A stretch of 64,000 nt of DNA, taken from the sequence record PV682947.1. One strand, 5' to 3'. The notes beneath the pieces are model-generated. The model was not told the origin of the DNA. It saw nothing but the letters and a program-made list of their open reading frames with translations, and ran no database searches. Shown piece by piece: positions 24,309-57,107 of this stretch (within the stretch, counting starts at the first letter, position 1; each line of letters starts with the position of its first letter). Both the position numbers and the translations under genes were made by a program. The DNA comes from Escherichia phage WPEC4.

Positions 24309-24365
24309 ACTCGCTATCGCTCGACCCTTCGGGGTTAGGGTAGCATATTTTTTGAAAAAAGTCAA
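24309..24365 (-). promoter_or_regulatory. Conserved promoter-like element class 2 (TTGACT-17-TACCCT, leader hairpin, GAGCGATAGCGAGTA)
   Basis: Minus strand reads TTGACTTTTTTCAAAAAATATGCTACCCTAA-ccccgaagggtc-GAGCGATAGCGAGTA; near-identical to the plus-strand element at 57050-57107. Confidence 0.5.
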
Positions 24366-24368
24366 CAC

Positions 24369-24719
24369 TTATTTTTTGGTAAGTAGATAAATCAATTGTT
24401 CACCTGCTTCTGGTGCATATAGTGCTTTAGTATCGAAGTCAAAGAAGTGAGTGACTCCTGTTACTTTGGATGCCTGAATAGATAATCGTGCAAGCTTAAG
24501 CAGATTATCCATTTCCGCAATCTTTGCACGAAACACTGCACGTGTAGCGTCAAAAGCTGCATGTGGCATGTATTTACGATTTAGACTACTACGTTTAAAT
24601 TTACGATAATCTGCAATGATCCTGTTACGTTCTTTGTTCAAGTGCTTTACCAGTGCAGTATATACGTGTGGTTCTTTGTTAGCCATTGTTAATCTCCTCT
24701 TCATATGTTGGTAGTGCAT
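24369..24719 (-). CDS. hypothetical protein
   Basis: 116-aa ORF. Confidence 0.5.
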   Translation of the reverse strand: MHYQHMKRRLTMANKEPHVYTALVKHLNKERNRIIADYRKFKRSSLNRKYMPHAAFDATRAVFRAKIAEMDNLLKLARLSIQASKVTGVTHFFDFDTKALYAPEAGEQLIYLLTKK

Positions 24720-24891
24720 GGTATGCGATCACAGGTGCCAAGTCAAAATAAAAATGACCATTGATAACAGCTATCGTGCCATTGCGTGTTTTGTTAACTT
24801 CACAGAATCCCTTCTTGCCGTTTGCCATGATTACAAGCCACTCTCCGATAGGAACATCCTCGGTACCAGATACTTTAATCCATCCACTCAC
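24679..24891 (-). CDS. hypothetical protein
   Basis: 70-aa ORF. Confidence 0.45.
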   Translation of the reverse strand: MSGWIKVSGTEDVPIGEWLVIMANGKKGFCEVNKTRNGTIAVINGHFYFDLAPVIAYHALPTYEEEINNG

Positions 24892-25145
24892 TTTACTTCC
24901 CCTTTGTAATCGGACACTACACCAGGTCTTACTTTTGCCTTAAGATGTTTCAACTCTGCCATAGGAGTTGCCACTTGTATAGGGTTAACTTCAACCTCGT
25001 AGATAGTATACTCATAACCCGCATACTTCCCGATGGAATGCAGGTATTTGATAGCATGTTCAGGTGAATCTGCTTCAACATACCCCAAATCTTTTGTAGT
25101 GCGGCCTTCACAGTCGCCTTCTGTAGTTACGTGGTAAAGTGTCAT
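24888..25145 (-). CDS. hypothetical protein
   Basis: 85-aa ORF. Confidence 0.5.
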   Translation of the reverse strand: MTLYHVTTEGDCEGRTTKDLGYVEADSPEHAIKYLHSIGKYAGYEYTIYEVEVNPIQVATPMAELKHLKAKVRPGVVSDYKGEVK

Positions 25146-25465
25146 AAAACCTCCTTCTTGTTGGCTGCTTCAATCATAGCGTTAAGAGTCTCCATACCGC
25201 TTTCAACTGCTTGAGCAATCTCTTGGAACACAGACTTCTTAAAGATGTATAAAGACCCTGCCTGTAAGCGTTGCACACAACATAAGATCGCTTGGTGATC
25301 CATCAGGAAGTCGCCGTAGGCTGAATCAATCTTACCTGTAATTGGGTTCTCTCGTGAACGAGGATCGTATTCTAATGTGATATGCGTTACACCAGGTAAA
25401 GTAACAAACTGACAACGGATGTTGACACGTGGTGCAATTGACACGCTAAACAGGCTGTTTGACAT
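25142..25465 (-). CDS. hypothetical protein
   Basis: 107-aa ORF. Confidence 0.5.
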   Translation of the reverse strand: MSNSLFSVSIAPRVNIRCQFVTLPGVTHITLEYDPRSRENPITGKIDSAYGDFLMDHQAILCCVQRLQAGSLYIFKKSVFQEIAQAVESGMETLNAMIEAANKKEVL

Positions 25466-25612
25466 TTAAACCTCCTCGTAGTAAGGCAAAGCTTTAATCA
25501 ATTGTTCTGAAGCACCATTCTCTATCCATGTAGCCCCGTTGTCAAGAGAAACATACCCTTTCTTATCGATAAATTTACGGAGACAACCAGTGAACTTGTT
25601 TTTGTAGATCAT
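25466..25612 (-). CDS. small hypothetical protein (48 aa)
   Basis: Unlisted ORF MIYKNKFTGCLRKFIDKKGY... with AAGGAAAG RBS; ATGA overlap with the upstream stop. Confidence 0.4.
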   Translation of the reverse strand: MIYKNKFTGCLRKFIDKKGYVSLDNGATWIENGASEQLIKALPYYEEV

Positions 25613-26037
25613 TTCTTCTTTCCTTTCTTTAATTTGTTGTGACCTTTACCCTTATAAAGCTTGTGATTACGAGCAGACGGGTTATTTTGGTTCTCCAGTC
25701 GGCTAACAGGTGTATTCCAAAGGTTTCCTGCTACAAAAGATGCTGCCACAAGTTCTTCCAGGTATACAAAATCCAAAGCAGGTATCTTTGTTTCCCTCAT
25801 CTCGCGTTCTACATTAGACAACACGCCTTCTTCCTTACTGTCTTCTTTTTCAATTACAAACCAACCCTGTTCCTGCCAAGCTTCCCCTCGGAACCAGTTT
25901 GACATATTGTAGCCATGCTCATCCAGAATAACACCGTATTGCATCTCAAACCACTCATCACTACAGAAGTATTCGTGCTTCACACGTTTGCCATTCTGCA
26001 TCGCTTCTTTAGCTTCGGTCCAAGTCATGTTTTGCAT
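25609..26037 (-). CDS. hypothetical protein with basic C-terminal tail
   Basis: 142-aa ORF, first gene of the leftward block. Confidence 0.5.
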   Translation of the reverse strand: MQNMTWTEAKEAMQNGKRVKHEYFCSDEWFEMQYGVILDEHGYNMSNWFRGEAWQEQGWFVIEKEDSKEEGVLSNVEREMRETKIPALDFVYLEELVAASFVAGNLWNTPVSRLENQNNPSARNHKLYKGKGHNKLKKGKKK

Positions 26038-26067
26038 TTGTTTTCTCCTCTCGTTTTGTATGAGTTG

Positions 26068-26095
26068 ATCTTAACAGGACTAAAAAGCATGTCAA
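26068..26095 (-). promoter_or_regulatory. sigma70-type promoter for the leftward block
   Basis: Minus strand aagtgTTGACA-16nt-TAAGAT, then GAGAGGAG RBS for 25609..26037; sits in the divergent region between the two blocks. Confidence 0.55.
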
Positions 26096-55343: not shown

Positions 55344-55607
55344 CTAAATAACATCTTTGAAATAGTGAATCACTTCAATATTATGGTACAAAGTGCTTCG
55401 CTCTTTTGTGTACTCTGTTTTAGTAACAAACACTTTTGCAATACCGTACTTATGCGCTGGTAGGCTTGGATTGGTTTGCATAATTTCTTTCACTACACTT
55501 ATAGTTTCGTGCTCGGATTCCCAATAAGTGAAGTAACCCTCACTATCAACGATTAAAGACTCGTTTTCAAGATCTACAAAACAGAAAAATATTGACGGAT
55601 GGCTCAT
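55344..55607 (-). CDS. hypothetical protein
   Basis: 87-aa ORF. Confidence 0.5.
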   Translation of the reverse strand: MSHPSIFFCFVDLENESLIVDSEGYFTYWESEHETISVVKEIMQTNPSLPAHKYGIAKVFVTKTEYTKERSTLYHNIEVIHYFKDVI

Positions 55608-55771
55608 TCTTTTTCTTCAACCTTCCTCAAAGCTTTTTGATCGAATATGGCGTGTTGCAATTCCCCGTTTTCATCGAACCAAGTTACTTTACAAGATTCA
55701 CCATAACTTTCTATTACTGTCATTTGTTTGTTTGCACCTTTAAGGCAAACTACATCACCTACTTGCATCAT
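55604..55771 (-). CDS. small DUF2158/YodC-like protein (55 aa)
   Basis: Unlisted ORF MMQVGDVVCLKGANKQMTVIESYGESCKVTWFDENGE...; ATGA overlaps with both neighbours. Confidence 0.4.
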   Translation of the reverse strand: MMQVGDVVCLKGANKQMTVIESYGESCKVTWFDENGELQHAIFDQKALRKVEEKE

Positions 55772-56217
55772 GATTGAGTTCCTTTTTGTTTTTCAATAGC
55801 TGCACGAATTTCTGCTAAAGGTTCTGCTACCAAGTCTTCAACTTCTTGGATTTGTTCATTCATCACATCACGAACCATTTGAATACGCTCTTCAAGGGAA
55901 ACAGCAAGTTCATCTGCATAAGCCATATTAAGAACGTGGTAGAAATTTTCTTGTGCACTTAAAGCACCAGATAACAAATAATCCTGATCTTCCTCTGGTA
56001 AAAGCATGTGTTGCTCATATTCAGCAAAAGTGTTTTTGTTAATCTCAAGCAAAGCACCCATCATAACATCATACTGATAATCTTTATGACCAGGGTTGTT
56101 TAAAATAACATCTTCAAAGATATTAAGAAGAATCTTAGTAACAAAAGCATTGTTTTCGGCACCTTCCATCTGACGGATTACCGTGATTACTTCTTTTTCT
56201 TTAGCGTTTTGGCTCAT
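55768..56217 (-). CDS. hypothetical protein
   Basis: 149-aa ORF. Confidence 0.5.
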   Translation of the reverse strand: MSQNAKEKEVITVIRQMEGAENNAFVTKILLNIFEDVILNNPGHKDYQYDVMMGALLEINKNTFAEYEQHMLLPEEDQDYLLSGALSAQENFYHVLNMAYADELAVSLEERIQMVRDVMNEQIQEVEDLVAEPLAEIRAAIEKQKGTQS

Positions 56218-56407
56218 AGTGTTTCTCCTCTGATTCTATTTGGATATAACCTGTGGTTTTGCACGGGTTACACTCGTAAATTTGACCTACGTCCGCCATA
56301 ACATATCCTGCACCACCACAATAGGGGCAAGGCATAGGAGGACAAGGTATGGACGTAGTGATTGTTACGACATTATCAATTTCCAACATTTTCGCCATTA
56401 TTACCAT
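56201..56407 (-). CDS. small Cys-rich protein
   Basis: 68 aa with CPPMPCPYCGG...CNPCK. Confidence 0.45.
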   Translation of the reverse strand: MVIMAKMLEIDNVVTITTSIPCPPMPCPYCGGAGYVMADVGQIYECNPCKTTGYIQIESEEKHYEPKR

Positions 56408-56649
56408 TCCGCTATTAACGTCAAACCAAGTGCATCGTTAAAACGCTCAACATTTGAGTATAGGTATGGAGGGGTTATTTGCTCTAAAATTTGTGCTGCT
56501 TCCACTTGGTGTTCTATGTTTTGAGAAGTTCGGGCATAAACTAAGACACCCATTTTATTCAAAATAAAAACAGAATCAGACCCATCCAGCTTATCAACGG
56601 CTGCATACATTTTAGTCATATTTTCTCCTGGATTACCATTCAGCAACAA
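56401..56649 (-). CDS. hypothetical protein
   Basis: 82-aa ORF. Confidence 0.45.
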   Translation of the reverse strand: MLLNGNPGENMTKMYAAVDKLDGSDSVFILNKMGVLVYARTSQNIEHQVEAAQILEQITPPYLYSNVERFNDALGLTLIAEW

Positions 56650-56848
56650 GACTAGGATTCATAGCAAAAGCTTTGAAAGTTGTTATGTCATGACTAACAT
56701 TAAAACTAACACCTTTTACTTTCTCTAGTATTTGAACTTTTGTCTCTCTGTCCCACGGTAGGATGATAACACCATCTCCTGTGATCAACCACCAATGGTT
56801 CTCTCCATCTCGTGAATCTTTTGCTTTGTATAGAAAATTGGAACTCAT
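56633..56848 (-). CDS. hypothetical protein
   Basis: 71-aa ORF with GGAGGAA RBS. Confidence 0.45.
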   Translation of the reverse strand: MSSNFLYKAKDSRDGENHWWLITGDGVIILPWDRETKVQILEKVKGVSFNVSHDITTFKAFAMNPSLVAEW

Positions 56849-56954
56849 TCTTCCTCCTGTTCGGTATTATTCACCTGTGAGACACAATGTAACACAAGCT
56901 TTGTGAGTTTGTCAAGGATCTAATTACATTCTACAGAAGAAGAGGGTTAATAAC

Positions 56955-57045
56955 TATAGGAATAGTCTTACTATAGGTGCAATACTAGTTAAGACTTAGA
57001 TTGATAGGTAAGACTTATCTTAAACAGATAATTGATAGGTGAATC
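56955..57045. repeat. Iteron-like short direct/inverted repeats in non-coding region
   Basis: TTGATAGGT at 57001 and 57032; AAGACTTA and its complement TAGTCTTA recur 3-4 times. Confidence 0.4.
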
Positions 57046-57049
57046 AGCA

Positions 57050-57107
57050 TTGACTTTTTCAAAAAAATATGGTACCCTAAACATATGTTTACGAGCGATA
57101 GCGAGTA
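57050..57107 (+). promoter_or_regulatory. Conserved promoter-like element class 2 (TTGACT-17-TACCCT, palindromic leader, GAGCGATAGCGAGTA)
   Basis: TTGACTTTTTCAAAAAAATATGGTACCCTAA-acatatgtttac-GAGCGATAGCGAGTA; copy of the minus-strand element at 24309-24365; points rightward into a minus-strand gene block. Confidence 0.5.

Follow-up and report, generated by a model that had tools for sequence, protein, structure and literature searches.

The record of Escherichia phage WPEC4 (PV682947.1) includes a stretch of 64,000 nt, the window analysed here, in which a promoter-like element occurs in two near-identical copies. One copy leads into a gene block and the other points against the genes that flank it, which raises the question of what kind of element is kept at both places and what a copy without a gene of its own would produce. 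The window belongs to Phapecoctavirus, i.e., the phAPEC8-like Escherichia coli myoviruses of ~150 kb in the subfamily Stephanstirmvirinae. Such phages are common in phage-therapy collections. Comparison of homologous copies suggests, with slightly better than even confidence, that the element is a distinct class of extended -10 promoter for host RNA polymerase with a fixed 5' hairpin leader, and that an antisense or non-coding RNA would come from copy A.

A cassette kept at three syntenic sites

The near-identical element reported in a preliminary description of the window was confirmed at 57050-57108 on the plus strand (copy A) and at 24365-24308 on the minus strand (copy B). Both copies contain TTGACT, a 17-nt spacer, TGn, TACCCT, a 12-nt palindrome whose sequence differs between them, and CGAGCGATAGCGAG. 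The promoter core of copy A (57050-57078, plus strand) has the -35 hexamer TTGACT at 57050-57055, a 17-nt spacer of a T-tract and an A-tract, TG at 57070-57071 and the -10 hexamer TACCCT at 57073-57078. The palindrome P1, AAACATATGTTT (57079-57090, plus strand), is centred on the predicted +1, an A at 57085, and is followed by the hairpin P2 (57089-57108, plus strand), where C plus GAGCGATAGCGAG occupies 57092-57105 and the box GAGCGATAGCGAG itself 57093-57105. The parts of this P2 are a lower stem TTA/TAG, a C-G pair, tandem G.A/A.G, GC/GC and the loop GATA. The core of copy B lies on the minus strand at 24337-24365, with TTGACT at 24365-24360, a 17-nt spacer, TG at 24345-24344 and TACCCT at 24342-24337. 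Its P1, ACCCCGAAGGGT (24335-24324, minus strand), contains CCGAAGG and centres on the predicted +1, a G at 24330, and its P2, again C plus GAGCGATAGCGAG (24323-24310, minus strand), is the sole copy with T.T as the first flanking pair.

The likeness of the two copies was measured in several ways. By blastn-short they align in two collinear segments, one of 31 nt at 90% identity (E 1.6e-5) and one of 16 nt at 100% (E 1e-3). Only two places in the window, both of them cassette copies, have the exact 15-mer GAGCGATAGCGAGTA. A covariance model of the element found the same two sites, at 77.8 and 77.6 bits, with the next best at 13 bits.

A distant blastn search with the A element gave matches in 132 phage records, and those listed with a lineage were all Stephanstirmvirinae or unclassified relatives. 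The element is ~80% identical in Justusliebigvirus, and the matches are weaker in the Klebsiella phages KP13-26/FKP3 and the Citrobacter phage Tr1. Pattern scans of IMG/VR and targeted fetching of sequences gathered 14 copies from five lineages with a syntenic cassette, namely Phapecoctavirus, Justusliebigvirus, KP13-26-like phages, Tr1 and one IMG/VR lineage. These 14 copies sort into three syntenic sites, A, B and C. The well-annotated canonical genome ASO2A (MZ726793; 277 genes) was used as the reference map; in it, site A lies at 20,060-20,130 (minus strand), site B at 136,824-136,894 (minus strand) and site C, which falls outside the window, at 59,870-59,940 (plus strand). Scanning ~150 kb of ASO2A, a near-complete genome, with the covariance model returned exactly three copies and nothing further at E <= 1. 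Across ASO2A (three copies) and the window (two copies), true copies score 62-82 bits, compared with less than 14 bits for the next best. A and B lie on one strand, and from A it is 28-40 kb to B in the direction in which the element points; C is found ~40 kb from A on the opposite side, facing away from it. The identical geometry was found in PD06, a KP13-26-like contig, KP13-26, Tr1 and the IMG/VR contig 3300014004_000001.

This geometry bears on the earlier statement that the element is present as two inverted copies, which is true of the window only and is an artefact of its rearranged source. Relative to ASO2A, the window is made of shuffled and partly reversed blocks: 1-646 corresponds to ASO2A 6047-6692, 1173-8018 to 31572-40293, 8019-38935 to 120713-151660 and then 1-431, and 45583-64000, reversed, to 31569 down to 13274. 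Between the last two blocks (window 38,900-45,700) lies a patchwork 6.8 kb long, made of ~77-nt tiles that run in either orientation, have spacings of 77, 155, 233 and 309 nt and include 18 direct-repeat families and 99 inverted pairs. All of the tiles map to six short ASO2A intervals, five of which sit on block breakpoints. Assemblers commonly use 77 as their largest k-mer, and the patchwork is therefore most likely an assembly-graph artefact in the source record. The GCGAAGC units repeated at 40.5-45 kb, considered as relatives of the cassette, proved to be such assembly tiles, unrelated to the element. The source sequence thus appears to be scrambled by misassembly, a matter for any user of that record, and order, orientation and distances over long range in the window should not be trusted. 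In ASO2A, ESCO5, Mt1B1_P17, ECO340P1, nieznany, REC and ABPW7, the relative orientation of the A and B regions is opposite to that in the window; therefore, in native genomes copies A and B are direct repeats on one strand, and there are three copies in all.

Outside the family, the matches to the IMG/VR search pattern, which has 18 bases, were mostly at chance level. One unrelated phage, IMGVR_UViG_3300037840_000216 (84 kb), without protein similarity to ASO2A, carries at 5839-5882 (minus strand) TGTGCTACCCTAA and then CTCCTATCGAGCGAAAGCGAGATAGGA, scoring 31 bits with the model. This site has the same core, a perfect 6-bp lower stem and GCGAAAGC, and is without a -35; it may be a convergent or a distant instance of the cassette. 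A separate family of 10 IMG/VR metagenome contigs has inverted pairs, ~70 bp apart, of ATTCTATACCCTATCCCCCCCAACGAGCGAAGCGAG(T)GGG. They share the cassette layout of TACCCTA, C-run, box and G-run and score 20-24 bits; being low-scoring and pre-selected by the search pattern, these matches may be due to chance.

Predicted promoter anatomy and paired hairpins

Read across the 14 homologous copies, the invariant parts of the cassette are ATG, TACCCTA, C-GAGCG and GCGAG. The -35 element is TTGACT or TTGACA in 11 copies, TTTACT in two and TTGATT in one, with at least four of six matches in every case. The spacer is 17 nt in 11 of the 14 and 18 nt in the other three. The extended -10 motif, TG at -15/-14, is part of an ATG that is present in 14 of 14. 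In sequence terms, a constant 17-18 bp spacing together with the invariant TG and the -35 marks the cassette as a predicted extended -10 promoter of the host polymerase. Between TACCCT and the box lie 12-16 nt that are different at every site and in most cases form the small hairpin P1.

The cassette had been proposed to be a conserved promoter-like element distinct from the early promoter family, and this view stands. The early family has ~12 copies at 34083-38771 (plus strand), also one at 11279 (minus strand), each followed by a small gene. Its order is an A-rich upstream region, TTGACA, N16/17, TAAGAT/TAATAT/TAAACT, 'gtatcacata', a GGGCGG..CCGCCC hairpin, a ribosome-binding site and the small gene. 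These hairpins are annotated as terminators in ASO2A, and no U-run follows them. Both families share the order of promoter, short overhang, 5'-proximal hairpin, ribosome-binding site and gene, as well as the distance from the -10 to the hairpin: the lower stem of P2 starts 9-13 nt past the -10, and the early-family hairpin 11-12 nt past its own. The cassette differs from the early family in its -10, in a sequence-invariant hairpin with tandem G.A pairs and a G(N)NA loop, in the extra palindrome across +1 and in a far lower copy number.

P1 had been described as a 12-nt leader hairpin. The palindrome itself is upheld, as it differs in sequence from copy to copy, stays palindromic and is enriched: over 13 distinct copies, the best stems sum to 43 pairs, compared with 28.0 +/- 2.4 after shuffling, and none of 5000 shuffles reached 43. 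Its role as a simple leader is not upheld, the 5' arm being upstream of the predicted start. This arm begins 1-4 nt after TACCCT, and the centre of P1 coincides with the +1 predicted from sigma70 rules, where most B and C copies have the G of cGAAg.

The conserved downstream box, taken earlier for a linear motif, turned out to be a hairpin with covarying flanks. Its centre varies in the loop only, as GAGCG-[AT|A|C|GG|AA]-(A/T)GCGAG, and P2 as a whole has the order of lower stem, C-G, tandem G.A/A.G (the 'CGAG' motif), G-C, C-G and a loop G(N)NA. The first flanking pair is C-G in eight copies, A-U in four and unpaired in one. Among flank cells, 84.6% are paired, compared with 73.3% in shuffled sets (0 of 500 as high) and 26-42% with the partners slid, and the covariation score is 0.374 versus 0.163. 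RNAalifold, run on the A copies, found P2 independently, with compensatory pairs in the consensus. The G.U pairs in the lower stem of P2 show that it is the promoter-sense strand that folds. Judged on sequence, then, the covariation shows a fold of the top strand, and it fits a structure in DNA or in RNA alike.

Further downstream of copy A, folding predicts a third hairpin, P3 (GTTTCAT..CTCAC-GATA-GTGAG..ATGAAAC; 57128-57161, plus strand), the outer stem of which shows the compensatory change TTTC/GAAA to TTGC/GCAA in the phiWec186/PsgM04F lineage. Two other pairings were tried and rejected. Long-range pairing of the C-run after TACCCTA with the G-run after the box is seen in 3-4 copies only and is not general, and pairing of the box with a downstream CTATCG motif shows no covariation. 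Rfam 15 covariance models gave only chance-level matches (E > 3) in 800-bp stretches around both copies.

Surroundings of the three sites

The ASO2A genome is organised in four strand blocks. The small early genes run rightward from 138.7 kb across the record ends to 23.4 kb, the nucleotide-metabolism block runs leftward from 59.7 to 23.5 kb, the tRNA/structural block rightward from 60.2 to 103 kb, and the replication block leftward from 138.6 to 103 kb.

Site A faces against the early block, ~3.3 kb short of its end. Each of the five lineages examined has it in an intergenic gap flanked by two opposite-strand genes, with no credible open reading frame (ORF) downstream of the cassette. The earlier view that one copy runs with genes and the other against them was borne out, since B is aligned with its gene block and A opposes its flanking genes in five lineages. 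Because copy A both opposes these genes and lacks a credible downstream ORF, an antisense or non-coding product is the natural reading.

The neighbouring genes named in the preliminary description also proved sound: the minus-strand gene at 57209-57418, encoding a membrane protein of 69 amino acids (aa), belongs to a real family (PHROG 24123, E 4e-46), and the plus-strand ORF 57183-57377 is a mere antisense of it. Just past the stop of this gene, at 57171-57199, lies a hairpin, GGTAGATA..TATCTACC, which the ASO2A annotation treats as a terminator for the gene strand and which, read along copy A, lacks a U-run. On the other side, a divergent sigma70-like promoter (56886-56915, minus strand; TTGACA-N18-TACATT, TG present, 10 of 12 matches) stands back-to-back with copy A and would serve the minus-strand gene starting at 56848. 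Between the two promoters are two ATTGATAGG repeats (57000-57008 and 57031-57039, plus strand), invariant among Phapecoctavirus-like A copies and represented by a related ATAGGnAnTATCTG in KP13-26 and Tr1. A regulator of both promoters could bind there. A motif (CA)TGTTA(C/T) is found 17-32 nt 3' of the box in all A copies (window 57133-57139) and in some C copies, and resembles the promoter's own CATGCTAC.

Upstream of site B, which is 1.8 kb into the replication block, lies a conserved gene of PHROG 14778. In the window, copy B is followed by a structured leader of ~115 nt (24193-24309, minus strand), with a hairpin AAGAACA..TGTTCTT at 24267-24240 and the Shine-Dalgarno sequence AGGAG at 24205-24201, before the gene start at 24192. 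The leader is homologous to leaders in L030, and its hairpin is called a 'terminator' in the ASO2A annotation, yet has no U-run. The first gene downstream (23995-24192, minus strand) encodes 65 aa, is the homologue of ASO2A_240 and belongs to PHROG 25113, with no function assigned. On the strand opposite copy B (24324-24341, plus strand), ACCCT..AGGGT, the complements of the P1 3' arm and the -10, can pair, and the T-rich run after this pairing leads the terminator scan to call a marginal site. Such a site could, by its sequence, stop antisense transcription into the block.

Site C, at the divergent junction at ASO2A 59.7-60.2 kb, is directed into the tRNA/structural block, and downstream of it come five GTACT repeats and two very AT-rich tracts. 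Another promoter-like site is present closer to the first gene. When ten neighbouring proteins were scanned against Pfam and PHROG for a regulator, only families of unknown function were found. The suggestion in the preliminary description that the cassette serves middle genes in need of a phage factor is a conjecture.

Weighing the readings of the cassette

The reading preferred here, a host-polymerase promoter with a hairpin leader, can be set out as follows. Host RNA polymerase would use the TTGACT-like -35, the 17-18 bp spacer, TGn and the -10 TACCCT, and transcription would start ~7 nt after TACCCT. The RNA would begin with an overhang of 1-6 nt, followed by the compact hairpin P2 with a lower stem of 1-5 bp, spaced from the -10 just as the GC hairpin is in the early promoters. 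Each genome would thus have three such transcription units, B for the replication block, C for the tRNA/structural block and A antisense, with A firing against the last part of the early block to give an antisense or non-coding RNA. We infer that the invariant TGCTACCCTA and the hairpin would be recognised by a factor that determines when these RNAs are made or what becomes of them, candidates being an alternative or phage-modified holoenzyme or an RNA-binding protein. The transcripts marked by the cassette would then probably form a class of their own, including one that is antisense to early genes.

In its general build, the cassette is like the E. coli sigma70 extended -10 promoters, including strong early ones of lytic coliphages, with a TTGACT-like -35, 17-18 bp, TG, TAnnnT and an intergenic position. 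It differs from them in a TACCCT with invariant CCC and A, in the fixed hairpin pair, and in having three copies per genome, one of which faces antisense. In the form quoted in PMC5650638, the sigmaS -10 consensus of Weber 2005 is KCTAYRCTTAA. The invariant GCTACCCTAA agrees with this quoted form in 9 of 11 positions, among them C at -13 and at -8, which is a resemblance only; unlike it, window copy A has G at -13, and a good -35 is present.

Several results weigh against this reading. TACCCT matches TATAAT at only three of six positions, keeping T-12, A-11 and T-7; a simple sigma70 scan calls neither window copy (8 of 12, threshold 9); and sigma70 rules do not account for the invariant CCC and the following A. 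Nearest-neighbour folding of the cores gives an unremarkable -1 to -7.6 kcal/mol (z -1.4 to +1.3), and therefore the structural case rests on comparison between copies. A simple terminator scan found no intrinsic terminator around copy A, so that none bounds its transcript, and searches of the literature on promoters and transcriptomes of phAPEC8 and Stephanstirmvirinae turned up no account of the element and no transcript data.

The promoter model also leaves P1 unexplained, as its 5' arm is upstream of the predicted start: with P1 centred on the predicted +1, this arm should go untranscribed. Three ways out may be named. Transcription could possibly start ~6 nt further upstream, from a -10 TATGCT/CATGCT that is 12 bp from TTGACT, a spacing which would require a phage factor. 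This alternative -10, with the start at the first base of P1, was rejected for the host holoenzyme alone, for which a 12-bp spacer is non-functional, and it also has no -35 17 bp upstream; together with a phage factor it is possible, and P1 would then be a 5'-terminal RNA hairpin. Another possibility is that P1 works on read-through RNA. The third way out, doubtful in itself, is that the hairpins work in DNA.

This last idea is also the leading alternative for the cassette as a whole. It holds that P1 (often cGAAg) and P2 (GCG(N)NAGC) work in DNA, with the top strand exposed by the promoter or by negative supercoiling, and it is unlikely without being far-fetched. The hairpins would then be marks resistant to single-stranded DNA-binding protein for replication priming or origin firing at three sites, or, at the same low probability, parts of a supercoil-sensitive promoter. 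Mini-hairpin DNA of the type GCGNAGC / GCGNNAGC, described by Hirao and colleagues, is known from the complementary-strand origins of G4, St-1 and alpha3, from RSF1010 ssiA (CCGAAGG) and from N4 virion-RNA-polymerase promoters, and its RNA versions are much less stable (PMC13037366). In 13 of 14 copies, and in four of the five box variants (GCGATAGC, GCGAAGC, GCGCAGC and GCGGGAGC), the box is an exact fit to the mini-hairpin consensus, which Tr1 B (GCGAATGC) breaks. Copy B contains CCGAAGG verbatim, as in RSF1010 ssiA, and the motif is at an initiation region; moreover, a P1 that straddles the predicted +1 is tolerable for a DNA structure and not for an RNA structure. However, mini-hairpin DNA acts in single strands with a primase or phage polymerase, whereas the motif of the cassette is in duplex just downstream of a sigma70-type promoter, with tandem G.A pairs and a covarying stem added to it. 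The lower stem of P2 has frequent G.T/G.U pairs, which RNA tolerates better; for extrusion the stems are very short, and folding with DNA parameters is unremarkable.

The genomic positions are similarly divided on this point. Short iterated motifs and extremely AT-rich tracts come after the C copies and after A in KP13-26, but B has no AT-rich tract downstream. B and C are at or near the two divergent junctions that are minima of cumulative GC skew; yet GC skew in ASO2A merely tracks gene strand and is uninformative, A lies near a skew maximum, and there is no mapped origin in this phage family. The T4 origins ori(uvsY) and ori(34) consist of a promoter and a downstream unwinding element and are primed through an R-loop. 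They resemble the cassette in having a promoter followed by very AT-rich DNA, as at C and at A of KP13-26, and in the use of several sites per large genome. The cassette differs from T4 origins and middle promoters in that it has no MotA box, an ordinary -35 standing in its place, and in the lack of an AT-rich tract at B. N4-type hairpin promoters, in which a virion single-subunit RNA polymerase reads a stem of 5-7 bp with a 3-nt loop, find no counterpart at the level of annotation, no RNA polymerase being annotated among the 277 ASO2A genes.

Less probable is a leader that acts in cis as an antitermination RNA, like HK022 put or lambda nut, making polymerase terminator-resistant so that one promoter could serve each long block. 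Lambda nut and HK022 put are promoter-proximal antitermination RNAs, and the likeness lies in the few copies, three here, in their promoter-proximal position, in a leader of small conserved hairpins, and in the tens of kilobases with many predicted terminators that each copy faces. Nevertheless, none of the 14 leaders has a boxA-like CGCTCTTTA or a boxB-type pentaloop, the fold is a different one, and the element is far below the size of put (~70 nt, two long stems). No Rfam match was obtained, copy A faces antisense DNA and no operon, and the second minus-strand block (ASO2A 59.7 to 23.5 kb) is without a copy.

There is little to recommend the idea that copy A makes an antitoxin-like antisense RNA of the convergent 69-aa membrane-protein gene, as in a type I toxin-antitoxin system. 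The window and the phiWec186/PsgM04F lineage do have a convergent hydrophobic protein of 67-69 aa whose gene ends ~130 nt downstream of the promoter, but the convergent neighbour in KP13-26, PD06 and Tr1 is another, non-membrane protein (142, 87 and 86 aa, respectively). The pairing with a small hydrophobic ORF is therefore present in two lineages and absent in three, and the same cassette would also drive ordinary genes at B and C.

It is very improbable that copy A is conserved for the sake of a small protein on the opposite strand, phAPEC8_0059 / ASO2A_058 (39-42 aa). The corresponding ORF (57015-57143, minus strand) overlaps the element and is annotated in several records, whereas many other records have no annotation there. 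Since its frame differs across lineages, the box being read as S-L-S-L in the window and as P-R-Y-R-S in KP13-26 and PD06, this ORF is probably not a gene. The same DNA is kept at B and C in other contexts, and the P1 sequence varies yet stays palindromic.

Finally, chance, or a recent functionless duplication, can practically be dismissed as the source of the likeness between A and B: although an exact 15-mer at two sites in 64 kb is not improbable alone, the blastn E-values and 78-bit model scores exclude it, and it is refuted by the conservation of the cassette at three syntenic sites in five lineages, with flanking DNA diverged beyond alignment.

The promoter with a hairpin leader remains the preferred reading. 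The cassette matched no Rfam family and no description in the papers found; its kind, the phage promoter-leader cassette, is known, and its unusual feature is the pair of mini-hairpins on the start site. A more specific proposal, a shade less probable than the general DNA alternative, is that the promoter is weak and depends on supercoiling, and that its firing, or the supercoiling itself, extrudes two adjacent top-strand mini-hairpins at the start site and so marks three conserved sites of replication start or of the switch from early to later transcription. If true, DNA mini-hairpin signals, familiar from single-stranded DNA phages, RSF1010 and N4, would extend to a large, host-polymerase-dependent double-stranded DNA myovirus, and hairpins that act in DNA would give mini-hairpin initiation signals a new setting. 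For the phAPEC8-like phages, the cassette offers a concrete handle on both the timing of expression and the start of replication, because its invariant combination of promoter and hairpin stands at three places, the replication block, the tRNA/structural block and, in antisense, the early block. From it one would predict three specific transcription starts and an antisense RNA.

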